From IMG/VR virus record IMGVR_UViG_3300035701_000001: DNA of 64,000 nt. One strand, given 5' to 3'. The translations under genes and the position numbers were made by a program. Source of the DNA: a virus. Positions within the stretch are counted from its first letter, which is position 1; the number at the start of each line of letters is the position of its first letter. This document shows positions 13,996 to 25,558 of the stretch, one piece after another. Below the pieces are notes generated by a model that ran no database searches, had not been told where the DNA came from, and worked only from the letters and a program-made list of their open reading frames with translations.

Positions 13996-14035
13996 CGGAT
14001 CCTTGAAATCGGGAATACGGATGGTTGTCCTGGAT

Positions 14036-14120: not shown

Positions 14121-14124
14121 CTTT

Positions 14125-14202
14125 GGCTGGATAGCTGAGCGTGGGACAAGCGCCTGACTGAAGATCAGGAGTACGTCGGTTCAACTCCGACTCCAGCCAC
14201 CA
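14125..14202 (+). tRNA. trnF: tRNA-Phe(GAA)
   Basis: CCTGA-CTGAAGA-TCAGG; CCA encoded. Confidence 0.9.
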
Positions 14203-14203
14203 T

Positions 14204-14291
14204 GGGAGGAAGCCAGATGTTAAATAGCTGGGGCGGGCTGTAAACCCGTTGCCTTCGGGCTGGGAGCGTTCGAATCGCTCTTCTCCCACCA
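14204..14291 (+). tRNA. trnY: tRNA-Tyr(GTA)
   Basis: GCGGG-CTGTAAA-CCCGT; long variable arm; atypical D loop. Confidence 0.85.
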
Positions 14292-14300
14292 TTTTTCTGC

Positions 14301-14388
14301 GGAAGGTGAGGCCGGGCGTGGGCTGGTCGCTGGTTGGAAGCCAGATGGCATCTTCGGATGTGCGGTTCGATTCCGCCGCCTTCCGCCA
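14301..14388 (+). tRNA. trnS: tRNA-Ser(GGA)
   Basis: TT-GGA-AG loop, long variable arm, G73-CCA. Confidence 0.85.
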
Positions 14389-14395
14389 TTTTTTT

Positions 14396-14472
14396 GGGAT
14401 GTTAGCTCAGTAGAGTAGAGCCCCCGACTCTTAATCGGGCGGTCGTCGGTTCAAGCCCGACACATCCCACCA
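14396..14472 (+). tRNA. trnK: tRNA-Lys(CTT)
   Basis: CCCGA-CTCTTAA-TCGGG. Confidence 0.9.
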
Positions 14473-14478
14473 CTTTTT

Positions 14479-14561
14479 GCTCGGATGGTGGAACGCTAGA
14501 CACGCGGCGCTTAGAACGCCGTGGCCGAAAGGCTGTGCGGGTTGAATTCCCGCTCCGAGTA
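14479..14561 (+). tRNA. trnL: tRNA-Leu(TAG), C19:G56 variant
   Basis: CT-TAG-AA loop; D loop GC, T loop TTGAATT. Confidence 0.85.
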
Positions 14562-14568
14562 CTCTTTT

Positions 14569-14656
14569 GGGGGCGTGGTGGAATTTTGGTAGACACCATA
14601 GGCCGAGGACCTATGGGGGCGTAAGCCCCGTGCCGATTCGACTTCGGCCGTCCCCA
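14569..14656 (+). tRNA. trnL: tRNA-Leu(GAG)
   Basis: CATAGG-CCGAGGA-CCTATG. Confidence 0.85.
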
Positions 14657-14663
14657 CTCATTT

Positions 14664-14751
14664 GCACGCGTGATGGAAACCAGGAAGACATCCGAGGCTC
14701 AGAACCTCGGGAGACGAAAGTCTCGTGCCGGTTCGATCCCGGCCGCGTGCA
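14664..14751 (+). tRNA. trnL: tRNA-Leu(CAG)
   Basis: CCGAGG-CTCAGAA-CCTCGG. Confidence 0.9.
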
Positions 14752-14761
14752 CTCGTTTGTT

Positions 14762-14835
14762 AGGCACCGTGCGCTGGGACACACCCAGGATTCCAAATCC
14801 AGGGGGGCCCGGATCATCACCGGGGGTGCCTGCCA
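14762..14835 (+). tRNA. trnW: tRNA-Trp(CCA), atypical T loop
   Basis: AGGCACC/GGTGCCT-G-CCA; TT-CCA-AA loop; T loop ATCATCA. Confidence 0.7.
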
Positions 14836-14844
14836 TTTTTCCAA

Positions 14845-14928
14845 GGGATGAGGTCGGGTTCCTGTTTGGAACCTGCTAGAACAACGGAGGCGGGTGGTCG
14901 AATAGACCTGGGAATCCGACCTCATTCC
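14845..14928 (+). ncRNA. unidentified structured RNA in tRNA array
   Basis: 18-bp terminal stem GGGATGAGGTCGGGTTCC/GGAATCCGACCTCATTCC enclosing small hairpins. Confidence 0.45.
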
Positions 14929-14937
14929 TCTTCTTTT

Positions 14938-15018
14938 GCCCAGATGGCGAAAAGGCAGACGTAGAGGTCCTAAAAACCTTGTCCTTCGGGAGTGCGGGTT
15001 CGACTCCCGCTCTGGGCA
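14938..15018 (+). tRNA. trnL: tRNA-Leu(TAA)
   Basis: GAGGT-CCTAAAA-ACCTT. Confidence 0.85.
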
Positions 15019-15100
15019 CTTTTCGGAGTTCTCGGATAATACCTGTCGGACGGCCTGAAAAACCGATCGATGCCCGTGGGGGCGGGGACTCCGTTTCTTG

Positions 15101-15188
15101 GGAGGCGTGACCGAGTGCTCGATGGCACCAGTCTTGAAAACTGGAGGTTCGCAAGGACCCGTGGGTTGGAATCCCACCGCCTCCTCCA
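15101..15188 (+). tRNA. trnS: tRNA-Ser(TGA), C19:G56 variant
   Basis: CCAGT-CTTGAAA-ACTGG; D loop GAGTGCTCGA, T loop TTGGAAT. Confidence 0.85.
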
Positions 15189-15194
15189 TCTTGT

Positions 15195-15282
15195 GGAAAC
15201 GTGACCGAGAGGCCGATGGTCCCCGCCTGCTAAGCGGGGTGTGTTAACCCACACGCGGGTTCGAATCCCGCCGTTTCCGCCA
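15195..15282 (+). tRNA. trnS: tRNA-Ser(GCT)
   Basis: CCCGC-CTGCTAA-GCGGG. Confidence 0.9.
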
Positions 15283-15287
15283 TCTTT

Positions 15288-15375
15288 GGAGCAGTGGCCA
15301 AGAGCCTCATGGCCCCCGTCTCGAAAGCGGGTGGTGCGAAAGCACACGCGGGTTGAAATCCCGCCTGCTCCGCCA
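15288..15375 (+). tRNA. trnS: tRNA-Ser(CGA), C19:G56 variant
   Basis: CT-CGA-AA loop; D loop GAGCCTCA, T loop TTGAAAT. Confidence 0.85.
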
Positions 15376-15468
15376 GTTTGAGCGATTGTGACCGATCTTG
15401 TTGATGTTCCATTCGAGATAAACTAGGCTCTTTCCATCGGAAGTGTCGGGAAGATCGGGCAGTTACAA

Positions 15469-16326
15469 ATGGAGGATTTCACGGAATTGGTCGCAGAGAA
15501 AAAATCAGAGAGCCCTGGACAGAAGCTCATCACAGCAGGACGCCATTCCTGGGAAGAGATCGGGAAAGTCTGGGAAGTGATGGAGGAGGAGAATCAGGAG
15601 GCTGCTGTTCGGGAACTTCTTGGTCTCCTCAAGACGACAGAGGATCACGGGGTTCGTGACATCGCTGCGATGTTTTTCGGTGATTTGAAGGAACAGGATG
15701 CCGCTGTTATCCTGGCTGGACTTCTCACGGACCCTCGGACAAAGAACCATCGGGGTCGTCTCGTTGCTGCATTGGGAGACCTCGACTACCAGGAGTTCCT
15801 TCCTGTGATCGAGGGACTTGCGTCTCCGGATGAGAGTTTTGAGGTTCGGAGCATCGTCCAGTACCTGCTCCATCTTCCTTTGGTAAGCCCTCCAGTACAG
15901 GTCGAGGAAGTGGTGATGGCCCATGACCCTTTGAACGCGACCGAGGCCATCGCAATGGCCGTCCTGGCATTCCTTCCGAAGGCGGACGATGCCAGGTTGC
16001 GGGATACCATGGAGAGACATTTCTTCGAGCCCGCGCCGCGCAAGGTGATCGCCCGCCTGAACCCCCCAGAGGAACTACGGGAGGCCCTTGACCTCTGCGC
16101 AGAACTGGATGACGTGTGGGACCTCGGTACCGACGTGCAAAGGCAGAGTATTGAGGATATCCGCCGACTTCTTGTGGGCCTTATCGGGAAAGGCCCCTGC
16201 CACGAGATCACCCTTGACGATTGCGCGGTGTTCATCGAGGTCATCCGTCGCGAAGAAGAACACCATCCTCTCCCTGCCGAGGTCCAAGAACCGTTGCGGC
16301 GACGACTTGTCGGGGAGCCACGATGA
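15469..16326 (+). CDS. HEAT/PBS-lyase-repeat-like protein, possibly two domains
   Basis: VRDIAAMFFGDLKEQDAAVILAGLL, RGRLVAALGDL helical repeats; internal RBS+ATG near 15916. Confidence 0.65.
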   Translation: MEDFTELVAEKKSESPGQKLITAGRHSWEEIGKVWEVMEEENQEAAVRELLGLLKTTEDHGVRDIAAMFFGDLKEQDAAVILAGLLTDPRTKNHRGRLVAALGDLDYQEFLPVIEGLASPDESFEVRSIVQYLLHLPLVSPPVQVEEVVMAHDPLNATEAIAMAVLAFLPKADDARLRDTMERHFFEPAPRKVIARLNPPEELREALDLCAELDDVWDLGTDVQRQSIEDIRRLLVGLIGKGPCHEITLDDCAVFIEVIRREEEHHPLPAEVQEPLRRRLVGEPR

Positions 16327-16337
16327 CTTGCTGAATT

Positions 16338-16385
16338 CGGGTGGTGCGAAAGCACACGCAGGTCGAAATCCTGCCTGCTCCGCCA
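16338..16385 (+). repeat. direct repeat of tRNA-Ser(CGA) 3' half (att-like)
   Basis: 48 bp, 3 mismatches vs 15328-15375. Confidence 0.85.
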
Positions 16386-16400
16386 GATTCTAATTTTTTC

Positions 16401-16429
16401 TTGACGACCACCTTTGAACCAGGTACATC
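16401..16429 (+). promoter_or_regulatory. promoter of tRNA block 2
   Basis: TTGACG-N17-TACATC. Confidence 0.5.
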
Positions 16430-16457
16430 ATCCTTGTCTTACAGGAGTTCGTCTACC

Positions 16458-16583
16458 GTGTCTCCATTTGCCAAAACAAACGCCCAAACCGCAGCCATTC
16501 GGCCCGAAAGGTCCGGGTGCGTCGGTATGGTGCGCGAGCAGGCGAATCACCCGACGGTGAACCGGGGGCGCGGCATGCGGTAG
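16458..16583 (+). CDS. putative attenuator leader peptide 2 (MSPFAKTNAQTAAIRPERSGCVGMVREQANHPTVNRGRGMR)
   Basis: AGGAG RBS, GTG start, 41 codons, antiterminator arm at 3' end. Confidence 0.6.
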   Translation: MSPFAKTNAQTAAIRPERSGCVGMVREQANHPTVNRGRGMR

Positions 16584-16604
16584 ACGATTTTCACCTACCC
16601 GACC

Positions 16605-16650
16605 GAGGCCCCCGGCAGAGCAATCTTCCGGGGGCTTCGTCGTTTTCTGT
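16605..16650 (+). terminator. attenuator/terminator hairpin upstream of tRNA block 2
   Basis: GAGGCCCCCGG/CCGGGGGCTTC stem then T-rich tract. Confidence 0.7.
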
Positions 16651-16677
16651 TCTTTGATTTTTTGAACTTTTTGCTCC

Positions 16678-16753
16678 GGGGATGAAGCTGAATTGGAACA
16701 GCCCCGCGCTACGGACGCGGAGAATGCCCGTTCGATCCGGGTCATCCCCGCCA
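16678..16753 (+). tRNA. trnR: tRNA-Arg(ACG)
   Basis: CCGCG-CTACGGA-CGCGG. Confidence 0.9.
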
Positions 16754-16797
16754 TTTCGAAGCTCTTTTCCATCCTGAATACGAATGGTCTTGTACAC

Positions 16798-16886
16798 GAT
16801 GTTCCTGACCGGAGAGGGTCGAGTCCATCGGCGGACGCAGGGAAACCGTGCACGTCGGTGGGTGCTCCCCTCTTCGGCAGGACATC
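16798..16886 (+). ncRNA. unidentified rod-like RNA in tRNA array
   Basis: GATGTTCCTG..GGAGAGGG / CCCCTCTTC..CAGGACATC stem, inner stem capped by GAAA. Confidence 0.4.
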
Positions 16887-16891
16887 CCTTG

Positions 16892-16965
16892 GTTCCCGTA
16901 GCGCAGATGCACAGCGCGCCGCGCTCCGGACGCGGAGGTCACCGGTTGGAATCCGGTCGGGAACG
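16892..16965 (+). tRNA. trnR: tRNA-Arg(CCG), C19:G56 variant
   Basis: CCGCG-CTCCGGA-CGCGG; D loop AGATGCACA, T loop TTGGAAT. Confidence 0.85.
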
Positions 16966-16973
16966 CCTTCTAT

Positions 16974-17050
16974 GGTAAGCGAAGTTCTATTGGTTGAACG
17001 CCGGGTTGTGGCCTCGGAGGGTGCGGGTTCGATCCCCGTCGCTTACCCCA
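16974..17050 (+). tRNA. trnH: tRNA-His(GTG)
   Basis: G-1 and C73; TT-GTG-GC loop. Confidence 0.9.
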
Positions 17051-17158
17051 GTTCGGCAATGCGGACACGGTGTAAGCAGCCCCCGCGTTGCCGGGCTGTC
17101 CCAGCGGGACGTTTTTGAGGTCCTGTGAGTGCAGTCGCTTGCGACTGCCGGGACAGCC
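17051..17158 (+). ncRNA. unidentified structured RNA in tRNA array
   Basis: 14-bp hairpin 17051-17096 plus three-way junction GGCTGTCCC/GGGACAGCC. Confidence 0.4.
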
Positions 17159-17166
17159 TGGTTTTC

Positions 17167-17243
17167 GGGGTGGTAGTTGAGTCGGTCACAACACCGGCCT
17201 GTCACGTCGGAGTTCGCGGGTTCGAGCCCCGTCCATCCCGCCA
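17167..17243 (+). tRNA. trnD: tRNA-Asp(GTC)
   Basis: CCGGC-CTGTCAC-GTCGG. Confidence 0.9.
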
Positions 17244-17292
17244 TTTTGGAGGTCCACATGACCCGATTGAAACGTCGGTCGATCTACCCCGT

Positions 17293-17365
17293 GGGGCGGT
17301 AGGTCAACTGGCAGACAAACGGCCTTTTAAGCCGATAGTTCCGGGTTCGAGTCCCGGTCGCCCCA
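17293..17365 (+). tRNA. trnK: tRNA-Lys(TTT)
   Basis: CT-TTT-AA loop. Confidence 0.9.
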
Positions 17366-17373
17366 CTCCCTTT

Positions 17374-17450
17374 CCGAGCGTAGCGCAGCCTGGTAGCGCA
17401 CAAGCCTTGGGCGCTTGTGGTCAGAGGTTCAAATCCTCTCGCTCGGACCA
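17374..17450 (+). tRNA. trnP: tRNA-Pro(TGG)
   Basis: CAAGC-CTTGGGC-GCTTG. Confidence 0.9.
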
Positions 17451-17457
17451 TTTCTTT

Positions 17458-17571
17458 TCCGCCTCGCAGCGGAACCTGCCGTCGGGGGCGGGACCGGGTT
17501 TCCACGGGACAGCAACCTGTGAAACGCGGATAGGGAAACCCCGGTACACTCCTTTCCGATGGGCGAGGGAA
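17458..17571 (+). ncRNA. unidentified rod-like RNA in tRNA array
   Basis: Nested stems CCTCGC/GCGAGG, CCGTCGG/CCGATGG, ACCGGGTTTCC/GGAAACCCCGGT, CACGGG/CCTGTG. Confidence 0.4.
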
Positions 17572-17586
17572 GGAGCCCGATTCTTC

Positions 17587-17659
17587 GTTCCCATCGTCTA
17601 GTGGTCCAGGATGGCGGACTCTCGATCCGTCGACACCGGTTCGAATCCGGTTGGGAATG
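17587..17659 (+). tRNA. trnE: tRNA-Glu(CTC)
   Basis: GCGGA-CTCTCGA-TCCGT. Confidence 0.9.
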
Positions 17660-17670
17660 CCTTTTCAGAT

Positions 17671-17687
17671 GGACACACGATGTGTCC
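17671..17687. promoter_or_regulatory. operator copy
   Basis: GGACACA-CGA-TGTGTCC palindrome. Confidence 0.6.
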
Positions 17688-17748
17688 AATGGTACGTCTT
17701 CTCCGAGGTCAATCCATGAACTCCAGGTCTCGTTCAAAGCAGGAAGCG

Positions 17749-18207
17749 ATGGACAACCGATACCCTCTCTGGGTCGACTCCAGTGAACGGTTCAACCTGC
17801 GGGAGGTCGCCCCCAACCTTTACGTGGGCTCCCAGTGGTCGTTGGAGTGCAGGGATTGGCGGGCGGTCGTGGATCTCACGGGAAGCAGCCGCAGCGATCC
17901 CACTGCATATGGACGTTGCGACCGGCTCCTGCGCTGGACCCTGCATGACGGGGATCCCTTCCCGGAGGGATCCCTCACGGCCATCGAGGGATTCTGCCGG
18001 GACCGGAGTGGTCCGATCCTTCTGCACTGCGCGGCGGGTCTCTCCCGGTCCGCCTCCGCTGCCTACGGAATCCTGAGGACCCACCACCGGCTGCCTCCGA
18101 GGGAAGCCCTCCGCAGGATTCGGGTCCTGCCTCAGTTTCCCGTGAAGGAGACCTTGCTTTCTGTGGAACAGTGGGTCCGTCGCTGGAAATATCGGAATTC
18201 CAGGTAG
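17749..18207 (+). CDS. dual-specificity/tyrosine phosphatase family protein
   Basis: HCAAGLSRSA (CX5R) P-loop; LYVGS and DGDP motifs. Confidence 0.85.
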   Translation: MDNRYPLWVDSSERFNLREVAPNLYVGSQWSLECRDWRAVVDLTGSSRSDPTAYGRCDRLLRWTLHDGDPFPEGSLTAIEGFCRDRSGPILLHCAAGLSRSASAAYGILRTHHRLPPREALRRIRVLPQFPVKETLLSVEQWVRRWKYRNSR

Positions 18208-18279
18208 AGTGGAGACGGGAGATGGTCCTGTGACGTTCTTCCCTTCTGCGGATAGAAGAGAAGAAAGAGAAGATATTCC

Positions 18280-18768
18280 ATGCATTCCCTGGTCTGGCTC
18301 GGTGCACTCGTTCTCGGTGGCTCGGCTCTGGCCTCGCGCGAGTCGAAGCCATCGGGTCCTGAGCAAGATCCCCGTTTTCAGCCGGTGGGTCCAGGGAGAG
18401 ATCCCGAGACATTCGGGGGGCAGGAAGAAGCGGTCCGTCTGGCGGATGCACTCGTAGCCCTCTGTGATTACGCCGAGGAAAACTGGGAGGAACTCGGGAT
18501 TCACAGAGTCCGGGTTCCTGAGGACCAGGGGGGTACCCTGGAAGGGATCCTCATTGAGCACTCCGTGCATGGAGCCGAATTCGTGATCCTCTCCCAGGCA
18601 CTCGAACTGGCAGAGCAGTACGAGGTCCGAGCCGTCCACGTCCTCTCGGACAAGGGGATCTTCATCGGATTCACTCCGCTGTTCTCCACGTCGTTCGAGC
18701 CCATCGACCCCGCATTCGTTAACCAGGGATTGCTGTGGAGGTCATACGGCAATCCCCTGTGGAAATGA
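18280..18768 (+). CDS. membrane-anchored hypothetical protein (WLGA family 1)
   Basis: MHSLVWLGALVLGGSALAS N-terminus. Confidence 0.75.
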   Translation: MHSLVWLGALVLGGSALASRESKPSGPEQDPRFQPVGPGRDPETFGGQEEAVRLADALVALCDYAEENWEELGIHRVRVPEDQGGTLEGILIEHSVHGAEFVILSQALELAEQYEVRAVHVLSDKGIFIGFTPLFSTSFEPIDPAFVNQGLLWRSYGNPLWK

Positions 18769-18814
18769 CGGGGTAGGGATTTATGGATAGGAAAGGGGAA
18801 AGAGAGGACATTCC

Positions 18815-19513
18815 ATGGCACACAAGACCGACTTCACTCCCCTGTACTGGCTTGGCGCGGCGTTGGTCGGCGCGTGGGCATTGTCTTCTGGAGGTTCGAA
18901 GGAAGAAAGGAGACTGGAAGGTCACCGGGGAAGGGCACAGGAACCCTACAGGACTGAAGAGCCACCACGGGAACCCGTCTCGCAGATGCAGACGAGAATC
19001 CCCGGAGGATCGGAAAGGGTCGAATCCGAGGTCCAGAGGAGAAAACCTGTCTCTTCCACAATGGGTCCCCAGAGAGCCAGTGTGGAAGAACAGGCCAGAC
19101 AAGCGGCAAAGGAAATGATCCCTGCCCAGGGGGAGGTCCAGTCTGTGGATCCGGGGGATGAGACGACTCTGATCTACCGGTATCCATCGGAGGATTGGCT
19201 CGGGACGCCCACAAAGACCCCCTGGGGGATTGCACGGTCTGCCCAGATGTTTGGAATCACAGGGTACATCTTCCCCGATGCGGCGGGTCGATACCCGATG
19301 TACGCCGCACAGGTCGAAGAAGGGATTTTCTATCCCTACTACTTGGTCTCCAAAGGAAAAGTGATTCCTGCGAAGTCCACCTTTGAGATCCTGTCCCTCG
19401 ATCCCTCCAAGGCCGAAGGCAAGGTCTACCTTTTCTCTCCGGACAATCCGAAGGACGTTCCCGGAAGAAAAGCTGTTCTGCAGGGAGGTCGGGTGAAAAT
19501 GGAGCAGGAGTGA
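18815..19513 (+). CDS. membrane-anchored hypothetical protein (WLGA family 2)
   Basis: LYWLGAALVGAWALSS; TPWGIA, FPDAAGRYP. Confidence 0.75.
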   Translation: MAHKTDFTPLYWLGAALVGAWALSSGGSKEERRLEGHRGRAQEPYRTEEPPREPVSQMQTRIPGGSERVESEVQRRKPVSSTMGPQRASVEEQARQAAKEMIPAQGEVQSVDPGDETTLIYRYPSEDWLGTPTKTPWGIARSAQMFGITGYIFPDAAGRYPMYAAQVEEGIFYPYYLVSKGKVIPAKSTFEILSLDPSKAEGKVYLFSPDNPKDVPGRKAVLQGGRVKMEQE

Positions 19514-19576
19514 GCTTGTTCCAGGAATGACATTGGGATGTGCTGCGGATAAGAAGGGGAAAAGAGAGGTCGTGTC

Positions 19577-20671
19577 ATGAATTCCCTGTACTGGCTCGGC
19601 GCGGCATTGCTCGGGGGTTGGCTGGCCTCGGGCTACGGAGAGAAGACGGAGGCGACTCCCTCTCGTCCGGCTCCGATCCCTCCCCGTCGGAATGGGACCG
19701 GACATGGGGATCAAGGTCAGGAGAGATACCCCGAGGAACCGGTCCAGGAACGCGAAGGGGCCGAATCAGGTCTTTTCGAGCAGGAAGAGCAGTTCGGACG
19801 CAAAAAGCCACAGCCATCGAAACACGAAGTTCGTACCGGGACTCCTCCTGCCAAGCCCAAGAAGAAGCCCGCTGCCATTGCCCAGAGCGATGCACTCGGA
19901 CTTGACCTCAACCCCATCTCCCGCCTGGCAACTTTCTCGAATTGTGAGGCCGAGAAGGTGGCAGCGCAGGAAGCCATCCGTCCTTTCTCGGAGCCGGTCC
20001 CGAAGACGCCCAGGACATCCCTGGTTGCTCCCCCTCCTCCGCCCCTCGACTTCGACGAAGAACTGGATCTCCTCGAAGAGGGAATCGAGTCCGAATTCTT
20101 CGAGGGTGTTCCGGAAGGAAAAGGACCCGTTTCTGCCAAGGCAAAGAAGTCAGCCCGGATCGAAACCCAGAACCGGGCAGTCCAGCGTGGGAAAGAAAAC
20201 GTCATCTCGGAGTTTTCCCTCGAAGGATCCTCAGAAGGCCCCGAGGAAGACGAAGAGGAAGACTGGCTCGACTGGGCCGAGGCCGAGTTTTCAGAAGAGG
20301 CGATGACCCAGTGGCAGGAATTCGGCCGCAAGCCCAAGGGATCTATGGCGGGACCCGGCAGCGAGTTCGAGGATCTGGAGTCTGCCGACCCCTACGCGAA
20401 CCTCGGCAACATCTACAGCACACCTGCAGGACCCGTACGGCATCGTCAGATCGACACGCCGGACGGCCCCCGCAACCTCTACACGTTCCCCGATGCTCAG
20501 GGCCAGTACCCGACCGTCTTCGATACACCGGACGGTCCCCGCTACGTCTATCCGGGGACTCTGCCGGGACAGACCGTCGAGGCTGTGACGGAACGGCGGG
20601 GGGATTCGTACTTCCACATGTCTCCGCAGCGGCTTGTCGATCTGGATTCACTTGGGCTTTCGGTCGAATGA
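19577..20671 (+). CDS. membrane-anchored acidic hypothetical protein (WLGA family 3)
   Basis: MNSLYWLGAALLGGWLAS; FPDAQGQYP. Confidence 0.75.
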   Translation: MNSLYWLGAALLGGWLASGYGEKTEATPSRPAPIPPRRNGTGHGDQGQERYPEEPVQEREGAESGLFEQEEQFGRKKPQPSKHEVRTGTPPAKPKKKPAAIAQSDALGLDLNPISRLATFSNCEAEKVAAQEAIRPFSEPVPKTPRTSLVAPPPPPLDFDEELDLLEEGIESEFFEGVPEGKGPVSAKAKKSARIETQNRAVQRGKENVISEFSLEGSSEGPEEDEEEDWLDWAEAEFSEEAMTQWQEFGRKPKGSMAGPGSEFEDLESADPYANLGNIYSTPAGPVRHRQIDTPDGPRNLYTFPDAQGQYPTVFDTPDGPRYVYPGTLPGQTVEAVTERRGDSYFHMSPQRLVDLDSLGLSVE

Positions 20672-20746
20672 CCCCCTTGTTTTTTGCCACTTCTTCCTTC
20701 AACTCATCTTGTTCTTCGGGATATAGAAGAGCAGGAGGATGTCTTC

Positions 20747-21721
20747 ATGCACCCTGTGATCTGGATCGGCAGCCTCGTCCTCGGGGCCTGGGCTCTCTCG
20801 GGAACCTCGAAGAGAAAGGAACCTCCTGTCGCAGGTTCTCCCGAACCTTCTCGCTCCGTAGGGTTCCTGGGTCGTCCTCGCTATGGAGCTACGGAAATCC
20901 GGCAGGTTTCCCCAGATGAACTTGGGCTTCTTGTTGAAGTACCCTGGGGAATAGTAGCGAAAGCACGGCAACAAACGCTGAAAGATGGCTGGACTCACAC
21001 GTTTTTTCCTGACGCACGTGGAAAATTTCCCATCTGGGCAATCGGCCAGCACTACTACTACTTGCCTCCAGGCGACCCGTGGACAGATCAGTGGGCAATG
21101 TCCTCGACGTACGCCGATCCGTTCGATCCTCCGACAAGGAAGAGGATTTTCACCGTTCCTTCCAAAGATCCTCAGTACTTCGACCTGGTCGATAGAATGA
21201 CTGAAATCAATCTGGACGAAGCCTATGCAGGGCGGAAGTCACGTTCGGACCGTTTCGGGGCAGTGACGGAGGAGGACCGCCTGGCTGTAGCCATCCGGGA
21301 ATTCAGGCGCGCAGCCGAGGAGTTCAAACCGCACTATGACAGGGGGGACTCCGTCCTGAATGCGAAGACCTCGGACAGCAAGGGTAGGCCCCTTGTTGGC
21401 GTTCTCACCCCTGTGGGGGACTGGGAATACGGGAAACCCATCAACTACGGCGTGGACTATCTCCATGGAGAGGCCTGTCGCATCGCGGAGAAGTACCGGG
21501 TGAGGGCAGCGATGTCTCCGGTGGTGTCCGTTGGGGAGAACCAAGGGGTCGTCATCGGACTCACGTCGGCTTGGAACCCAGCATTCCAGACTCTCTTCCG
21601 TGGACAGAATCCAGAGCTTCAATGGGGGAGAGCCAGTCTGAAGGGACTCCAGTACCAGACAGGCATCTTGCCACGTCCTGGTTCGGGGGACTCGTACGGG
21701 AAGAAGGCCTCCGAGATCTAA
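20747..21721 (+). CDS. membrane-anchored hypothetical protein (WLGA family 4)
   Basis: MHPVIWIGSLVLGAWALSG; VPWGIV, FPDARGKFP; GGAGG RBS. Confidence 0.75.
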   Translation: MHPVIWIGSLVLGAWALSGTSKRKEPPVAGSPEPSRSVGFLGRPRYGATEIRQVSPDELGLLVEVPWGIVAKARQQTLKDGWTHTFFPDARGKFPIWAIGQHYYYLPPGDPWTDQWAMSSTYADPFDPPTRKRIFTVPSKDPQYFDLVDRMTEINLDEAYAGRKSRSDRFGAVTEEDRLAVAIREFRRAAEEFKPHYDRGDSVLNAKTSDSKGRPLVGVLTPVGDWEYGKPINYGVDYLHGEACRIAEKYRVRAAMSPVVSVGENQGVVIGLTSAWNPAFQTLFRGQNPELQWGRASLKGLQYQTGILPRPGSGDSYGKKASEI

Positions 21722-21794
21722 CGCAATCGAATAGCGCACCAGATTGGGGATCTGGTGAGTGATCGTTCCAATCAGGTGGTCCCGACTTGTTCAT

Positions 21795-21871
21795 GGGGTT
21801 GTAGCTCAGTTCGGGAGAGCGCGGCGTCCGCAACGCCGAGGCCGGGGGTTCGACTCCCCTCGACTCCACCA
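21795..21871 (+). tRNA. trnA: tRNA-Ala(CGC)
   Basis: CGGCG-TCCGCAA-CGCCG; G3:U70. Confidence 0.9.
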
Positions 21872-21876
21872 TTCAT

Positions 21877-21949
21877 GGGCCTGTAGTTCATCTGGGAGAA
21901 CACCTCGGTGGCATCGAGGAGGCAGTCGGTTCGAGTCCGATCAGGTCCA
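21877..21949 (+). tRNA. trnA: tRNA-Ala(GGC)
   Basis: CCTCG-GTGGCAT-CGAGG. Confidence 0.85.
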
Positions 21950-21958
21950 CTATTTCAC

Positions 21959-22035
21959 GGGGTTGTAGCTCAATGGTTTAGAGCAATCGGCCGTTAACCG
22001 ATAGGCTGTCCGTTCGAGTCGGACCTTCCCCGCCA
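21959..22035 (+). tRNA. trnN: tRNA-Asn(GTT), two U-U mismatches in acceptor
   Basis: ATCGG-CCGTTAA-CCGAT. Confidence 0.8.
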
Positions 22036-22040
22036 TCTTT

Positions 22041-22128
22041 GGGACGGTAGCTCAGTTGGGTAGAGCGCGGTTCTGATAAGACCGAGGCCGAGAGGATTTC
22101 GTGGGTTCGAGCCCCGCCCGTCCCACCA
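22041..22128 (+). tRNA. trnI: tRNA-Ile(GAT), enlarged variable region
   Basis: CGGTT-CTGATAA-GACCG. Confidence 0.85.
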
Positions 22129-22129
22129 T

Positions 22130-22206
22130 TGTCCCCTAGTTCAATTGGCAGAACGCTCGGCTCTGGACCGAGAGGTTTCAAGGTTCGAACCCTTGGGGGA
22201 CAACCA
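22130..22206 (+). tRNA. trnQ: tRNA-Gln(CTG)
   Basis: CTCGG-CTCTGGA-CCGAG. Confidence 0.9.
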
Positions 22207-22212
22207 TCTCGT

Positions 22213-22285
22213 GTCGGTGTAGCCCAAAGGCTGGGCACGACGCTGCAAACGTCGAAGAATGCCGGTTCGAATCCGGCCGCCGACT
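22213..22285 (+). tRNA. trnC: tRNA-Cys(GCA)
   Basis: CGACG-CTGCAAA-CGTCG; U73. Confidence 0.85.
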
Positions 22286-22292
22286 CCCTCTT

Positions 22293-22368
22293 CGGGGTGT
22301 AGCTCAGTTGGAGGAGCGCCTGGTTCGGGACCAGGAGGTTTTCGCCGGTTCGAGCCCGGCCACCCCGA
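22293..22368 (+). tRNA. trnP: tRNA-Pro(CGG)
   Basis: CCTGG-TTCGGGA-CCAGG. Confidence 0.9.
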
Positions 22369-22454
22369 CTCCTTCGTGTTACAACAAGGATACCGGCAGG
22401 CCGTGAGCCGGGACAACCGCACGGTACCTTCACCTCGATGTCAGGGAGAACGAC

Positions 22455-22883
22455 ATGAGACAGGTGCGTGCGAAGTTCCGGTGCATGGAGATCAGCCGTT
22501 TCTGGAACGGGGGGTGTACGCTCGTACGTTTTTTGCCTGTCATGGCAAAGAATGGATGCCGTGCGGACGAAGAGACCGCCAGCGAGGAGAACGCAGCCTT
22601 CTGGCAGGCAACCCCTTCCGGAGAAGCCAAGCTCCAGTTCCCCACGCTCGACCCCGTGTCCTACGAGATCGGGCACTGCTACTACCTCGACATGCGTCCA
22701 GACGAACAGGGGAGTTGGAAGCTCACCGAGCGCAAGCACAGTGAAGGCCAACTCGGGGTTGTCCTGTCCTGCTCCTGGCGGGACTCGGTCAGCATGAACA
22801 TCTGCAACGAGTCAGCCTGGGATGCCTTCGACGGTCCCATCGGGGGACCCTGGTCTGTCGAGTTCACGCACGCGGGGCCGTAG
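22455..22883 (+). CDS. hypothetical protein inside tRNA array
   Basis: 142 aa, GGAGA RBS, VRAKFRC and ENAAFWQATPSG motifs. Confidence 0.75.
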   Translation: MRQVRAKFRCMEISRFWNGGCTLVRFLPVMAKNGCRADEETASEENAAFWQATPSGEAKLQFPTLDPVSYEIGHCYYLDMRPDEQGSWKLTERKHSEGQLGVVLSCSWRDSVSMNICNESAWDAFDGPIGGPWSVEFTHAGP

Positions 22884-22898
22884 CGCTCCTTCTTTTGC

Positions 22899-22969
22899 CG
22901 GGGCGTTGGCAAGCGGCAAGCCACCAGGCTTTGGTCCTGGCATCGCAGGTTCGAATCCTGTCGCCCCCA
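22899..22969 (+). tRNA. trnQ: tRNA-Gln(TTG)
   Basis: CCAGG-CTTTGGT-CCTGG. Confidence 0.85.
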
Positions 22970-22977
22970 CCTTCGAA

Positions 22978-23054
22978 GGCAGCGTACCTCAGTTGGCCAG
23001 AGGAGGGCGCTCATATCGCCACGGTCGCCGGTTCGAGTCCGGCCGCTGCCACCA
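22978..23054 (+). tRNA. tRNA-Met/Ile2(CAT)
   Basis: CT-CAT-AT loop; identity Met vs Ile2 not resolved. Confidence 0.8.
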
Positions 23055-23063
23055 TCCTTTCAT

Positions 23064-23141
23064 CCGGCTGTAGCTCAGCCTGCTCAGAGCGCGTGGTCGG
23101 GGACCACGAGGTCGCCCGTTGAAGTCGGGCCAGCCGGACCA
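23064..23141 (+). tRNA. trnP: tRNA-Pro(GGG), C19:G56 variant
   Basis: CGTGG-TCGGGGA-CCACG; D loop AGCCTGCTCA, T loop TTGAAGT. Confidence 0.85.
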
Positions 23142-23145
23142 TTTT

Positions 23146-23220
23146 GCGGGTATGGCGCAATGGTAGCGCATCGGGTTGCCAATCCGAAGGTTGCCGGTTC
23201 GACTCCGGTTGCCCGCTCCA
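23146..23220 (+). tRNA. trnG: tRNA-Gly(GCC)
   Basis: TCGGG-TTGCCAA-TCCGA. Confidence 0.9.
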
Positions 23221-23339
23221 CTTTGAAATAATCTACAAAAAACGAAAGAAACGAAAATAATGACACAGAACTTGTATAGTCCGAGGCTTGGACTATACAG
23301 TTCCTGTGCAATTTCAAGAAAGATGCAGGTTCCTTCGTT

Positions 23340-23412
23340 GCTGACATAGCTCAGCCGGTAGAGCAGTGGTTTTGTAAACCTCAGGTCGTCGGTTCGAACC
23401 CGACTGTCAGCT
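23340..23412 (+). tRNA. trnT: tRNA-Thr(TGT)
   Basis: TT-TGT-AA loop. Confidence 0.9.
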
Positions 23413-23422
23413 TTCCTTCCTC

Positions 23423-23500
23423 GCCCCAGTAGCTCAGGTGGATCAGAGCGCGTCCTTGGTAAGGACGAGGTCATCGGTTCAAGTCCGATTTGGGGCTCCA
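23423..23500 (+). tRNA. trnT: tRNA-Thr(GGT)
   Basis: CGTCC-TTGGTAA-GGACG. Confidence 0.9.
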
Positions 23501-23506
23501 TTTTGT

Positions 23507-23584
23507 GCCTCAGTAGCTCAGATTGCTTGGAGCGCCTGCTTCGTACGCAGGAGGTCGTCGGTTGGAATCCGACCTGAGGCTCCA
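23507..23584 (+). tRNA. trnT: tRNA-Thr(CGT), C19:G56 variant
   Basis: CCTGC-TTCGTAC-GCAGG; D loop AGATTGCTTG, T loop TTGGAAT. Confidence 0.85.
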
Positions 23585-23587
23585 TTT

Positions 23588-23719
23588 CTCAGGACGCATC
23601 GAACGAGGCTAGGGCCCGTGTCTCCCTTCGGAATCGGTGGGAGGAGCTTCGGCTTCGTTTGCACCACCCCAACGCGGTGGATAATCGGGGTGGGAAGCGT
23701 GCGGATGACCTGTCCTGGG
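23588..23719 (+). ncRNA. unidentified multibranch RNA in tRNA array
   Basis: Terminal TCAGGAC/GTCCTGG stem enclosing CTCCC/GGGAG, GAGC-TTCG-GCTT and CCACCCC/GGGGTGG hairpins. Confidence 0.35.
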
Positions 23720-23727
23720 ATCTATTT

Positions 23728-23799
23728 GCGGGAGTAGCTCAATGGTAGAGCGCCAGCCTTCCAAGCTGGCCGTTGCGGGTTCGAGTCCCGTTTCCCGCT
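23728..23799 (+). tRNA. trnG: tRNA-Gly(TCC)
   Basis: CCAGC-CTTCCAA-GCTGG. Confidence 0.9.
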
Positions 23800-23807
23800 C
23801 TTTTTCC

Positions 23808-23882
23808 GGGTGTGTAGCTCAATGGTGGAGCACCGTTTCGACATGGCGGAGGCCGTTGGTTCGAGTCCAATCACACCCACCA
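23808..23882 (+). tRNA. trnV: tRNA-Val(GAC)
   Basis: CCGTT-TCGACAT-GGCGG. Confidence 0.85.
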
Positions 23883-23888
23883 TTTCTT

Positions 23889-23926
23889 GGGGACGTAGCT
23901 CAGTTGGGAGAGCGGCGTTGCACGCG
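23889..23926 (+). pseudogene. truncated 5' half of tRNA-Ala(TGC)
   Basis: GGGGACGTAGCTCAGTTGGGAGAGCGGCGTTGCACGCG with no T arm or 3' acceptor. Confidence 0.7.
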
Positions 23927-23952
23927 TAGTCCAGGTATGGTAGCACTAGGCT

Positions 23953-24444
23953 ATGTCGAAGTACCGCTTTGTGAAAGCTCCTCCTGACTACCCCGGCAAG
24001 GTGTACTCCTGGGGGTATCGGGTTCTTGAACATCACCTTGTTTGGTGGCAGAACACCAAGCGCCTCGTTGCAGAAGGTTTTGAGCTTCACCACAAGAACG
24101 AAAATGGGTTGGACAATCGCTTTGAGAACTTGGAGGAAATCAGGGCGCCGGATCATGGCAAGCTGCATCACCCAAAGGAACCGGATGTGGAGACAACCTG
24201 CGCTTACTGCGAAAAGCCTCTCACTAGAAGTGGCCGGGATGTCAAGTCCAAGAGAAAAGCTGGTCAGCAGCGATTCTTCTGCTCATCTTCTCATGCAGCC
24301 CTCATACGACAACGTGAGAAGAAAGGATCGAAGGCCGGTCACGGTACAAGCTCGATGTATAACATTCATGGCTGTCGATGTGAAGTCTGCAAAGTCTACA
24401 ATCAAGCCAAGTATCTCAGGTACAAGGCTAAAAAGGGGCGTTAG
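23953..24444 (+). CDS. HNH homing endonuclease (HNH_3-like)
   Basis: VLEHHLVWW..ELHHKNENGLDNRFENLE; CAYC/FCSSSH and CRCEVC Zn motifs. Confidence 0.85.
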   Translation: MSKYRFVKAPPDYPGKVYSWGYRVLEHHLVWWQNTKRLVAEGFELHHKNENGLDNRFENLEEIRAPDHGKLHHPKEPDVETTCAYCEKPLTRSGRDVKSKRKAGQQRFFCSSSHAALIRQREKKGSKAGHGTSSMYNIHGCRCEVCKVYNQAKYLRYKAKKGR

Positions 24445-24510
24445 TTCAGTTGCGAGAACACTCGGCTTGCACCCGAGAGGTCGCGGGTTGGAACCCCGCA
24501 CGCTCCACCA
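24435..24510 (+). tRNA. trnA: tRNA-Ala(TGC), C19:G56 variant, overlaps HNH stop codon
   Basis: CTCGG-CTTGCAC-CCGAG; D loop AGTTGCGA, T loop TTGGAAC. Confidence 0.85.
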
Positions 24511-24516
24511 TTTCTG

Positions 24517-24590
24517 TGCGGGGAGAGGTGTTGGTTTCCCAACCAGGACTCATACTCCAGGCCACGTCGGTTCGATTCCGGCCCCCGCTA
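24517..24590 (+). tRNA. tRNA-Met(CAT), initiator-like 1:72 mismatch
   Basis: CT-CAT-AC loop; U1-U72 mismatch; lacks the three anticodon-stem GC pairs of canonical fMet. Confidence 0.75.
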
Positions 24591-24599
24591 CCCTTGTTC

Positions 24600-24672
24600 G
24601 CGAGCATCGTCTAGCGGCCAGGACTCCGCCTTTACACGGCGGCTATCGGGGGTTCGAGTCCCTCTGCTCGCA
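24600..24672 (+). tRNA. trnV: tRNA-Val(TAC)
   Basis: CCGCC-TTTACAC-GGCGG. Confidence 0.85.
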
Positions 24673-24682
24673 CTTCTCCCAT

Positions 24683-24755
24683 GCCCCCGTCGTCTAACGG
24701 TCAGGACTCCGGGTTTTCAGCCCGGCTACTGCAGGTTCGAATCCTGTCGGGGGTA
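24683..24755 (+). tRNA. trnE: tRNA-Glu(TTC)
   Basis: CCGGG-TTTTCAG-CCCGG. Confidence 0.85.
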
Positions 24756-24761
24756 CTCCTT

Positions 24762-24836
24762 GCTCGCGTAGCTCAATGGAGGAGCACCGGAGTTCTACCT
24801 CGGTCGATGGAGGTTCGAATCCTCTCGCGAGCGCCA
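24762..24836 (+). tRNA. trnR: tRNA-Arg(TCT)
   Basis: GT-TCT-AC loop; weak anticodon stem. Confidence 0.75.
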
Positions 24837-24841
24837 ATCAC

Positions 24842-24916
24842 GGCCCCGTAGCTCAGTGGAATCAGAGCCTCCCGTTCCTACCGGGAAGGTCACCGGTTCG
24901 AGTCCGGTCGGGGCTG
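24842..24916 (+). tRNA. trnR: tRNA-Arg(CCT)
   Basis: TCCCG-TTCCTAC-CGGGA. Confidence 0.9.
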
Positions 24917-24976: not shown

Positions 24977-25558
24977 ATGCACGCCGTCCTTCTTCTCAAC
25001 GTCGACCATACCCCCATGAAGATCGTCCCCTGGCAGAAGGCCATGTGTCTTCTGCTCGCGGACAAGGTCCGGCTCATCGAGAGCTACGGGGACAAGGTCG
25101 TGCATTCCGCCTCGGGCAAGACCTGGCCCTGGCCTGCGGTCGTGGCCCTGAAGACCTATGAGCGGATCAAGAGGGCCGAGTCGAAGGTCAAGTTCAAGCG
25201 CCTCAACGTGCTGGCCCGAGACGGGTTTGCCTGCGCGTACTGCGGGGTCAAGCCCCAGACGTCCGCCGGGCTTCCTGACCTGTCTCGCCTCTCGGTCGAC
25301 CACGTCGTTCCGAAGTCCCGTGCGGTCGATGGCAAGGTGAAGCTGCCCTGGAACGGCCGGGTGGTCCCCATGACGTGCTGGGACAACGTCGTGTCCTCCT
25401 GCAACGCCTGCAACTACGCGAAGGCGGACCGGACCCCTGCCGAGGCGGGGATGAAGCTCCAGGTCGTCCCGAGACGACCCAATCCCTTCGACGTCGTCCG
25501 CATCGTGCTGTCTCGGATGGCCGTGCCTGCCGAGTGGGAACCACATTTGTCTTCTTGA
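24977..25558 (+). CDS. HNH endonuclease (McrA-like)
   Basis: VLARDGFACAYCG, SVDHVVPKSR, WDNVVSSCNACNYAKAD. Confidence 0.9.
   Translation: MHAVLLLNVDHTPMKIVPWQKAMCLLLADKVRLIESYGDKVVHSASGKTWPWPAVVALKTYERIKRAESKVKFKRLNVLARDGFACAYCGVKPQTSAGLPDLSRLSVDHVVPKSRAVDGKVKLPWNGRVVPMTCWDNVVSSCNACNYAKADRTPAEAGMKLQVVPRRPNPFDVVRIVLSRMAVPAEWEPHLSS

Follow-up and report, generated by a model that had tools for sequence, protein, structure and literature searches.

Swapped elbow pairs in a phage tRNA array

The window, a stretch of 64,000 nucleotides, contains an array of 41 tRNA genes, all of which were detected on the + strand by ARAGORN (Table 1). The array is carried by an uncultured giant phage with a phage-like genome of about 204 kb; no close relative of the array was found in IMG/VR or INPHARED. 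A HAD_SAK_2 gene of the RNA-repair type lies at 5500-6207. The G19-C56 pair, which connects the D-loop to the T-loop at the elbow, is among the most conserved contacts in tRNA. In 7 of the 41 tRNAs, this pair is flipped to C19-G56 by matched changes in the two loops. By structure-based parsing, the D-loop of all seven contains G18-C19 and the T-loop contains T54-T55-G56. Their D-loops are GAACGCTAGA, AGTGCTCGA, AGAGCCTCA, AGATGCACA, AGCCTGCTCA, AGATTGCTTG and AGTTGCGA: GG is present in none of them and GC occupies the place of positions 18 and 19 in each. Their T-loops are TTGAATT, TTGGAAT, TTGAAAT, TTGGAAT, TTGAAGT, TTGGAAT and TTGGAAC. The remaining 34 tRNAs all possess TTC (C56) and 32 of them possess GG, the exceptions being Lys-CUU at 14396, which has AG, and the Pro-GGG copy at 21712, which is degenerate. 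Thus, the seven swaps reported in the preliminary description are confirmed. Positions 19 and 56 covary (7/7 versus 0/34, Fisher p = 4.4e-8), and within the window G56 never occurs without C19 or C19 without G56. For Ala, Leu, Ser-UGA, Thr and Pro, Rfam RF00005 alignments assign the changes to G19 and C56 of the model; the D-loop of Ser-CGA aligns with low posterior, and the swap of Arg-CCG was assigned from ARAGORN only.

Table 1 Swapped tRNA genes and associated features in the window
Feature	Position	Strand	Evidence
tRNA-Leu(UAG), C19:G56	14479..14562	+	ARAGORN; Rfam 48.3 bits, G19->C and C56->G aligned
tRNA-Ser(UGA), C19:G56	15101..15188	+	structure parsing, Rfam alignment
tRNA-Ser(CGA), C19:G56	15288..15375	+	structure parsing, Rfam alignment
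duplicated 3' half of tRNA-Ser(CGA)	16333..16385	+	local alignment to 15288-15375
tRNA-Arg(CCG), C19:G56, bacterial swapped-Arg type	16892..16967	+	ARAGORN
tRNA-Pro(GGG), C19:G56, plus C33	23064..23141	+	structure parsing, Rfam alignment
tRNA-Thr(CGU), C19:G56	23507..23584	+	structure parsing, Rfam alignment
canonical tRNA-Ala(UGC) 5' half, D-loop AGTTGGGA	23889..23925	+	sequence, alignment
HNH endonuclease gene	23953..24444	+	Pfam HNH_3 E = 4.6e-5; PHROG HNH endonuclease E = 3e-9
tRNA-Ala(UGC), C19:G56, G3:U70 retained	24435..24510	+	Rfam, structure parsing
second HNH endonuclease gene, array end	24980..25558	+	Pfam HNH E = 6.8e-5; PHROG_16726 E = 5.5e-25

All seven swapped tRNAs score 45.9-63.2 bits against RF00005 (gathering score, 29), and their cloverleaves are intact, with 0-2 mismatches or unpaired positions in the stems according to ARAGORN. 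The spacers to neighboring tRNAs are 5-10 nt and CCA is encoded by five of the seven genes. Identity elements are present in tRNA-Ala (G3:U70), tRNA-Pro (C1:G72 and A73) and tRNA-Arg (A20 and C35), and the Leu and Ser tRNAs possess long variable arms. By these features the seven genes are intact and not decayed, they carry their identity elements, and they are predicted to be tightly co-transcribed. They share the cloverleaf, the 7-nt T-loop, G18, T54, T55, R57, A58, G53:C61 and the isotype identity elements with canonical RF00005 tRNA, in which the elbow consists of G18-Psi55, G19:C56 and T54-A58; they differ from it in C19 and G56. Throughout the window, T54, A58, G53 and C61 are kept in the T-arms (G53 and C61 deviate once each). 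Therefore, the T-arms of the window are not degenerate. In six window tRNAs, U33 is replaced by C.

The swapped tRNAs had been described as seven unrelated isotypes. They indeed form no clade (mean identity 0.62, versus 0.60 in random sets), and their nearest neighbors are mostly canonical tRNAs, of the same isotype in five of the seven cases. However, Ser-UGA and Ser-CGA are mutual nearest neighbors (75% identity), and so may share one swap event, and Arg-CCG resembles bacterial Arg tRNAs that are already swapped. Identity between window and bacterial tRNAs is only about 70%, which is consistent with long independent evolution. Codon usage did not predict the swap (RSCU 1.03 versus 1.04).

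Two gene fragments lie in the array. The 3'-half copy of tRNA-Ser(CGA) is located at the far end of the insertion with ORF 15469-16326, and its T-loop, TCGAAAT (C55, G56), represents a third allele of the Ser(CGA) T-loop. The canonical tRNA-Ala(UGC) remnant breaks off in the anticodon arm and its best matches are the 5' halves of canonical tRNAs. The first HNH ORF runs 10 nt into the start of the swapped tRNA-Ala(UGC). The second HNH ORF is listed from 24776, with homology beginning near 24980. The tRNA arrays described in 2021 (PMC8421152) likewise contain dozens of packed tRNA genes and embedded HNH genes and spread horizontally; the window array differs in lying on a phage-like genome. A term search of that text found no mention of elbow changes, and our literature search found no paper that describes swapped elbows.

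Comparison with a syntenic array

Orthologues were compared in one relative, the metagenomic array L343, which has the same gene order as the window array at 76-85% identity, spacers included. Two swaps are common to both arrays. The Ser-UGA orthologue (86% identical) is C19:G56 as well, with compensatory changes in both its acceptor stem and its anticodon stem, and the Thr-CGU orthologue (91% identical) retains C19:G56 with one compensated acceptor pair. Thus, for these two tRNAs, purifying selection on the fold is seen in this one relative. Ser-CGA is C:G in the window, whereas it is U19:A56 with C55 in L343 (90% identity). The Arg-CCG elbow of L343 is canonical, and Pro-GGG has G19:C56, yet its T-loop is ATCGAAG. 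Leu-UAG is canonical and only 67% identical to the window copy; Ala-UGC at the same slot is also canonical (64%). The elbows of Met, Val-UAC and Thr-GGU are non-G:C in L343 only. As a whole, tRNAs without C56 account for 7 of 41 in the window and 6 of 37 in L343, and C55 is found in two L343 tRNAs and one window remnant. In every variant seen in the two arrays, 19:56 is a Watson-Crick pair, with the states G:C, C:G, U:A and A:U.

Of 12 clear orthologues, 3 differ at the 19:56 pair, and 14% of the stem pairs in this set differ on both sides; of 35 same-anticodon pairs, 8 differ at 19:56, and the corresponding value for stem pairs is 30%. Thus, between the window and L343 the elbow pair turns over about as often as ordinary stem pairs. 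Because it changes about as freely as a helix pair, the pairing and not the bases is kept. The earlier view that the covariation reflects selection for pairing and not decay is borne out: the genes are intact, two swaps are conserved in L343 and all variants are Watson-Crick.

Such elbows are rare in phage tRNAs. Among 489 bystander phage tRNAs, six lack C56 and none has G56; with 748 other phage tRNAs as background, of which 6 are non-C56, the 7 of 41 in the window gives a binomial p of 4e-8. Non-G:C elbows of all types cluster by genome (26/243 versus 6/489). Rewired elbows also occur in tRNA arrays of the Acidobacteriota and Chloroflexota assemblies examined. Arg-CCG of Tunturi_5 and of a Holophaga array is U19:A56.

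Proposed compensated turnover of the elbow pair

The reading that we tentatively favor, giving it slightly less than an even chance, is that 19:56 complementarity alone is selected and not base identity, and that the turnover arises from compensated mutation together with allele replacement. The driver would be nearly neutral compensated turnover in an old, fast-evolving tRNA array resident in a phage, and the swap would need no dedicated function. C19:G56 is isosteric with G19:C56. Therefore, the two loops should still intercalate with each other and the outer face of the elbow should stay flat, and readers that only stack on this face (RNase P, the ribosomal L1 stalk and T-boxes) would be expected to accept the swapped pair. 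The pair changed in place in Ser-CGA, Met and Val-UAC. Whole tRNA alleles have probably also been replaced via mobile elements, as suggested by the HNH gene beside Ala-UGC and the inserted islet at Ser-CGA.

Several points count against this reading. The enrichment of non-G:C elbows is strongly lineage-specific, and for neutrality alone to work something more must be assumed, such as an old or fast-evolving array or a host that tolerates the change. A change from G:C to C:G requires two transversions through a mismatch. Furthermore, the changes at U55 (to C55) and U33 suggest that the loops themselves may be under pressure.

A possible role of homing endonucleases that recognize T-loop DNA

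The best-placed rival to compensated turnover, which we regard as possible but rather unlikely, is that endonucleases resident in the array cut the conserved T-loop motif in competing genomes and spare altered T-loop DNA. The RNA would tolerate C56 to G only together with G19 to C, and the endonuclease gene and the immune allele would spread jointly by gene conversion. Because a change at 56 would be tolerated only with its match at 19, selfish DNA would drive compensated evolution of the elbow. If this is true, an arms race with endonucleases that read the T-loop motif would rewire the "invariant" elbow in phage and mobile tRNA arrays.

There is a precedent. SegB is encoded within the T4 tRNA cluster and recognizes 27 bp, of which the essential core, GGTTCRANTCC, is the T-stem-loop motif; it drives inheritance of the flanking tRNA genes (PMC2330249). 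HNH genes are regular neighbors of bacterial and phage tRNA arrays (PMC8421152), and the window array contains two of them. As in the T4/T2L cluster, a free-standing endonuclease gene lies inside a phage tRNA cluster and the relative without it has a different allele: L343 possesses canonical Ala-UGC, and tblastn with the HNH gene at 23953-24444 as a query found no match in L343. The window adds a truncated candidate target gene alongside, since this HNH gene is flanked by the truncated canonical tRNA-Ala(UGC) on one side and abutted by the intact swapped copy. SegB is a GIY-YIG enzyme, in contrast to the HNH enzymes in the window. To our knowledge, descriptions of SegB include no compensated T-loop allele that escapes it.

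Among IMG/VR loci selected because they contain a swapped tRNA, 5 of 26 have an HNH ORF no more than 1 kb from that tRNA, and among loci selected for a canonical one, 1 of 50 does (p = 0.016), a comparison that is confounded by genome type; when only array loci are counted, the values are 5/18 and 0/15 (p = 0.049). Cutting of T-loop DNA would also cover the use of any Watson-Crick alternative, the C55 variants and the clustering by genome. However, within arrays the swapped tRNAs are not significantly nearer to an HNH gene than other tRNAs (combined p = 0.16). Targeting by homing endonucleases at the DNA level, which had been suggested from the sequence alone, thus gains real though incomplete support from the SegB precedent, the HNH gene beside Ala and the excess between loci, and is weakened by the negative result for proximity within arrays. 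In addition, 34 canonical T-loop motifs persist in the window, some directly beside HNH genes, and the HNH gene was inserted at the anticodon arm and not at the T-loop. The window HNH enzymes, known from sequence, are unrelated to SegB and to the HNH enzyme of Tunturi_5. The HNH count covers IMG/VR loci; on chromosomes, tRNA-Arg genes are swapped in single-tRNA loci.

Other explanations

The swap had also been proposed as an escape at the RNA level: the bases of the elbow or T-loop would be recognized by a host nuclease, sensor or modification enzyme, from which a flipped pair would hide the tRNA. We consider this improbable. Any non-G:C pair would serve, which matches the observed states, and the RNA-repair-type gene of the phage would fit such a conflict. 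A tRNase that cuts inside the T-loop, CdiA-CT E479, exists (PMC9086364). According to van den Berg et al. (2023, PMC10264068), tRNAs of T5-type phages escape anticodon nucleases by loop substitutions. Escape at the elbow would share the idea that phage tRNAs differ from those of the host at nuclease-read sites with function kept, but the T5-type substitutions affect the anticodon loop and have been connected with known nucleases, whereas the window change is a compensated tertiary pair. In the portions of the literature covered by our search, tRNA-cutting defenses target the anticodon arm or the variable loop, and no defense nuclease is described as reading G19:C56. Moreover, a general elbow reader would still attack the 34 tRNAs that are canonical, the window and its close relative L343 do not have the same swapped set, and the rate of change at 19:56 equals that of stem pairs. 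Other tRNA-cutting defenses act on the 3' end of tRNA. We know of no reader of the compensated 19:56 change.

It is very unlikely that the swap was simply inherited from host-lineage tRNAs that were already swapped, with nothing specific to the phage. When one genome per species was scanned, 51 swapped tRNAs were confirmed, of which 33 were single tRNA-Arg(CCU) genes on chromosomes of several phyla. Chromosomal tRNA-Arg(CCU/CCG) is C19:G56 in CP065003.1 and in many Pseudomonadota and Acidobacteriota assemblies, and one complete Acidobacteriota genome has C:G in Arg-CCG and Arg-CCU and A:U in Arg-UCG. In the two Acidobacteriota chromosomes sampled in full, non-G:C elbows were found in arginine tRNAs only (1-3 of 38-45 tRNAs), with C19:G56 in Arg-CCU of both and also in Arg-CCG of the first. 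The window Arg-CCG shows identities of 0.81 with the swapped Arg-CCU and 0.77 with the swapped Arg-CCG of Acidobacteriota CP065003.1, and of only 0.63-0.67 with the canonical Arg tRNAs of that genome; like the chromosomal type, it has the D-loop ..TGCA.. and the T-loop TTGGAAT. Among the seven, Arg-CCG at 16892 is the only tRNA that combines A20, C35, ..TGCA.., TTGRA.. and this similarity. It simply has the same swap as the chromosomal arginine tRNAs in the sampled Acidobacteriota. A swap common in host-lineage tRNAs, which would count against the escape idea, is therefore seen for arginine only, and the other isotypes of both chromosomes are all canonical, whereas the window swap extends to Leu, two Ser, Pro, Thr and Ala. 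These six have no close relative among the sampled phage and bacterial tRNAs, and the Leu, Arg, Pro and Ala counterparts in L343 are canonical.

Finally, one other array gene, Pro-GGG at 21712, is truly degenerate, but the idea that the seven swapped tRNAs are decaying pseudogenes or assembly artefacts has almost no likelihood, since it is contradicted by seven exact double changes with zero single ones in intact cloverleaves and by two swapped genes in an independent metagenome with compensatory stem changes.

Seven tRNA genes with a C19:G56 elbow pair

The G19:C56 pair is taught as near-invariant and forms a docking face for RNase P, the ribosome and T-boxes. As the preliminary description had noted, seven tRNA genes of the window (Leu-UAG, Ser-UGA, Ser-CGA, Arg-CCG, Pro-GGG at 23064, Thr-CGU and Ala-UGC) have C19:G56 instead. 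In the ARAGORN structures, the T-loops of all seven start with TTG and those of the 34 others with TTC. In the D-loops of the seven, GC stands at the place of the GG that is present in 32 of the other 34. The association of TTG with GC (7 of 7 versus 0 of 34) was significant among the 41 window tRNAs (Fisher p = 4.4e-8). In Rfam alignments, the changes fall at model positions G19 and C56 in Ala, Leu, Ser-UGA, Thr and Pro; the D-loop alignment of Ser-CGA is uncertain in Rfam, and the position call for Arg-CCG is that of ARAGORN only. T54, T55 and A58 are invariant in the window tRNAs, and G53 and C61 each depart once. Therefore, the T-arms of the window are not generally degenerate.

From their sequences, the seven swapped tRNAs look functional. 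Their stems contain 0-2 unpaired positions, and they score 46-63 bits in Rfam. Identity elements could be read in Ala-UGC (G3:U70), Pro-GGG at 23064 (C1:G72 and A73), Arg-CCG (A20 and C35) and Thr-CGU (G1:C72 and C2:G71), and Leu-UAG and both Ser tRNAs have long variable arms. CCA is encoded in five of the seven genes. A common origin was rejected, as the seven are not a clade: their mean pairwise identity is 0.62 versus 0.60 in random sets, and the tRNAs most similar to them are mostly canonical, in five cases of the same isotype. Ser-UGA and Ser-CGA are each other's nearest neighbours.

The tRNA array and its surroundings

The window belongs to a phage-like genome from an uncultured virus. 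ARAGORN predicted 41 tRNA genes at 8745-24917, all on the + strand; Rfam confirmed 36 of these and found one tmRNA. The tRNA genes form five blocks, with only 5-10 nt between neighbours, and adjacent tRNAs must therefore be excised from common precursors. Large ORFs (15469-16326 and 17611-21721) break up the array; the databases searched yielded no relatives of them, and they are missing from L343, a syntenic metagenome relative with a compact array. Orphan genes have invaded the window array. The second Pro-GGG is probably a decaying copy, the tRNA with anticodon UCA may be an opal suppressor, and the recombinase and TnpB-type ORF pair at 3616-5507 is an IS607-like element layout.

Features in and around the tRNA array of the window
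Feature	Coordinates	Strand	Remarks
Serine-recombinase ORF	3616-4185		Resolvase domain
TnpB-type ORF	4182-5507		Directly follows the recombinase ORF
HAD-domain ORF	5500-6207		Upstream of array; stand-alone, "Swiss Army Knife" RNA-repair type (PF18143, E = 3e-29)
tRNA, anticodon UCA	8745-8818	+	Stand-alone; irregular anticodon stem; labelled SeC by ARAGORN, yet no long arm
tRNA-Lys(CUU)	14396-14472	+	D-loop AGTAGAGTA, A at the expected G18; normal TTC T-loop; GG in L343 orthologue
Duplicated Ser-CGA 3' half	16333-16385	+	Beyond inserted ORF; T-loop TCGAAAT, with C55
Second tRNA-Pro(GGG), degenerate	21712-21786	+	8 unpaired stem positions; T-loop TTCCAAT; at end of 4-kb ORF insertion
Canonical tRNA-Ala(UGC) 5' half	23889-23925	+	D-loop AGTTGGGA; broken off in anticodon arm
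HNH endonuclease ORF	23953-24444	+	Follows Ala remnant; 3' end overlaps first 10 nt of intact swapped Ala-UGC
Second HNH gene	About 24980-25558, at array end		
R2K-clade ATP-grasp protein	29538-30356		Downstream of array

No close relative of the window was present among 50,697 curated phage records, and megablast gave one tRNA-sized match only. The best distant blastn match among curated phages was the Acidobacteriota jumbo phage Tunturi_5. It was rejected as a close relative because its tRNAs are no nearer than generic same-anticodon pairs (0.69 vs 0.61); only 2 of its 41 tRNAs have non-canonical elbows. Protein anchors (ORFs 19577-20671, 15469-16326 and 12441-13760) recovered no relatives from IMG/VR, and ORF 20684-21721 matched only itself among 5.8 billion proteins. 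ORF 22259-22744 overlaps tRNA-Pro(CGG), which produced artefactual protein matches; the loci of these matches were reused as a tRNA control.

Turnover of the elbow pair between orthologous arrays

We searched metagenomes with a Thr-CGU pattern in which G or C was permitted at 19 and at 56. One match, Ga0315295_10016590 (L343), is a 6.5-kb contig with 37 tRNA genes. Its gene order is the same as that of the window, with 76-85% identity including the spacers and leader region. Same-anticodon pairs are 0.60-0.91 identical, and the 12 pairs with at least 0.79 identity were taken as clear orthologues.

State of the 19:56 pair in the window and in L343
tRNA	Window	L343	Remarks
Ser-UGA	C:G	C:G	Compensated changes in other stems
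Thr-CGU	C:G	C:G	Compensated changes in other stems
Ser-CGA	C:G	U:A	90% identical; C55 in L343
Met (22978)	G:C	C:G	C55 in L343
Val-UAC	G:C	U:A	
Thr-GGU	G:C	A:U	Less similar pair
Leu-UAG, Arg-CCG, Pro-GGG, Ala-UGC	C:G	G:C	Less similar pairs

The 19:56 pair is Watson-Crick in every state of this comparison. Among the 12 clear orthologues it differs in 3, and among 35 same-anticodon pairs in 8; for base pairs of the acceptor, anticodon and T-stems, changes of both bases amount to 14% and 30%, respectively. These rates, which come from the one relative L343, are similar, and the "invariant" elbow pair thus acts like an ordinary helix pair here. Because other Watson-Crick pairs stand in place of G:C, the identity of the bases appears dispensable and the pairing does not. 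A non-G:C Watson-Crick pair occupies 19:56 in about one-sixth of the tRNAs of this phage lineage.

The switches in place make this phage lineage a natural experiment on the elbow pair, and they raise the question of what holds G:C fixed in cells. The 19:56 pair could be varied in orthogonal or engineered tRNAs. Furthermore, tRNA gene finders and covariance models penalise genes with a swapped elbow. We found no description of C19:G56 in phage tRNAs in the literature searched; what the window adds is an orthologous array pair that displays turnover directly, together with a concrete endonuclease locus.

Distribution of swapped elbows in phages and bacteria

The search with the swapped-tRNA pattern matched only 37 stretches. 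Among 489 bystander tRNAs at loci fetched for a canonical tRNA, six lacked C56 (five U56 with A available at 19, and one A56 with U) and none had G56. Similarly, 127 further phage tRNAs from the control loci of ORF 22259-22744 included one U56 and no G56. At loci fetched for a swapped tRNA, 26 of 243 bystander tRNAs lacked C56 (12 C:G, 8 U56 and 6 A56). Therefore, non-G:C elbows cluster by genome. A swapped tRNA-Ala(UGC) (D-loop AGTTGCCTA, T-loop TTGGAAT) is common to L009, L015, L023-L025, L027 and L029, IMG/VR loci in which it is about 93% identical; several of these contigs align over little beyond the tRNA.

Over one bacterial genome per species, the pattern found real swapped tRNAs at at least 51 loci. 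Among the matches listed, 33 of 51 are a single chromosomal tRNA-Arg(CCU), in Acidobacteriota, Pseudomonadota and other phyla, and the remainder lie mostly in dense tRNA arrays. In the Acidobacteriota chromosome CP065003.1 (45 tRNAs), Arg-CCG and Arg-CCU are C:G, Arg-UCG is A:U and all others are G:C; in a Silvibacterium assembly (38 tRNAs), only Arg-CCU is swapped. The identity of the window Arg-CCG is 0.81 and 0.77 with the swapped Arg tRNAs of CP065003.1 and 0.63-0.67 with the canonical ones. Thus, one of the seven is of an ordinary bacterial type. The isotypes of the other six are canonical in both chromosomes. Host assignment by tRNA similarity was uninformative (about 0.70 identity to both genomes), and Acidobacteriota as host is only a lead.

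In four dense bacterial arrays (L162 and L209 from Chloroflexota, L176 and L224 from Acidobacteriota), the elbows of many or most tRNAs are rewired; for example, TGC-starting T-loops occur with D-loops that have no GG, and there are ATCG-starting T-loops, C:G and U:A. The motifs AGATGTA.A / TTAGAGT are common to the Arg-CCG of a Holophaga array and of Tunturi_5.

Possible causes of the elbow changes

We tentatively favour a nearly neutral, compensated turnover of the pair, because it fits the rate of change, the spread of the swaps over isotypes, the contrast between window and L343, and the use of all Watson-Crick alternatives. If the array is old, resident in phages and evolving fast, this could account for the excess in this lineage; identity of the window tRNAs to bacterial ones is only about 70%.

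Allele replacement probably contributes as a second source of elbow change. The HNH ORF between the Ala remnant and the swapped Ala-UGC is absent from L343, whose Ala-UGC in the same slot is canonical. At the Ser-CGA locus there are three T-loop alleles: TTGAAAT in the window, that of the duplicated 3' half, and TCAAAAT in L343.

It is possible, although less likely, that homing endonucleases which read T-loop DNA select the altered alleles. SegB resides in the tRNA cluster of phage T4, recognizes 27 bp with the essential core GGTTCRANTCC, which is the T-stem-loop motif, and drives the tRNA genes around it to be inherited (PMC2330249). tRNA arrays are regularly accompanied by HNH genes (PMC8421152). 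A change of C56 to G would destroy the SegB core, and the RNA would tolerate it only with G19 to C; the Ala locus, with its remnant, HNH ORF and swapped copy, is consistent with such selection. Of 26 loci selected because they contain a swapped tRNA, 5 have an HNH ORF no further than 1 kb from the focal tRNA, compared with 1 of 50 controls (p = 0.016); when only array loci are compared, the counts are 5 of 18 and 0 of 15 (p = 0.049). Both samples are small, and genome type is a confounder. However, within arrays, the distance to an HNH gene is not significantly shorter for swapped tRNAs (p = 0.16), and 34 canonical motifs persist in the window. The window HNH has no homology to the HNH of the Tunturi_5 array. 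If the endonuclease link is true, it would clearly exemplify DNA-level conflict shaping RNA tertiary structure.

The preliminary description took the seven swaps to imply selection, mainly for escape from a nuclease or sensor that recognizes the elbow or T-loop. We consider such RNA-level escape improbable. It has precedents in kind, namely escape through the anticodon loop (PMC10264068), a tRNase that acts on the T-loop (PMC9086364) and the contact of TruB with base 56 (PMC8051267). However, it does not readily explain why only some tRNAs are swapped and why this set shifts, and the literature searched contained no elbow-reading defence. A link to rare codons (RSCU 1.03 vs 1.04, p = 0.99) and avoidance of the restriction sites TTCGAA or TCGA, which are kept in most of the 34 canonical tRNAs, were rejected.

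Unusual residues at positions 33 and 55

U33 is near-universal in tRNA, and U or Psi at 55 is universal. Six window tRNAs between 14569 and 23882 have C33 (Leu-GAG, Leu-UAA, Ala-CGC, Asn-GUU, Pro-GGG at 23064 and Val-GAC); Pro-GGG at 23064 combines it with the elbow swap. C33 occurs in 5 of 37 tRNAs in L343 and in 39 of 621 control phage tRNAs. The two L343 tRNAs with C55, Ser-CGA (5318-5407) and Met (2429-2505), both have G18. In addition, the T-loop of L343 Pro-GGG is ATCGAAG, with A54.
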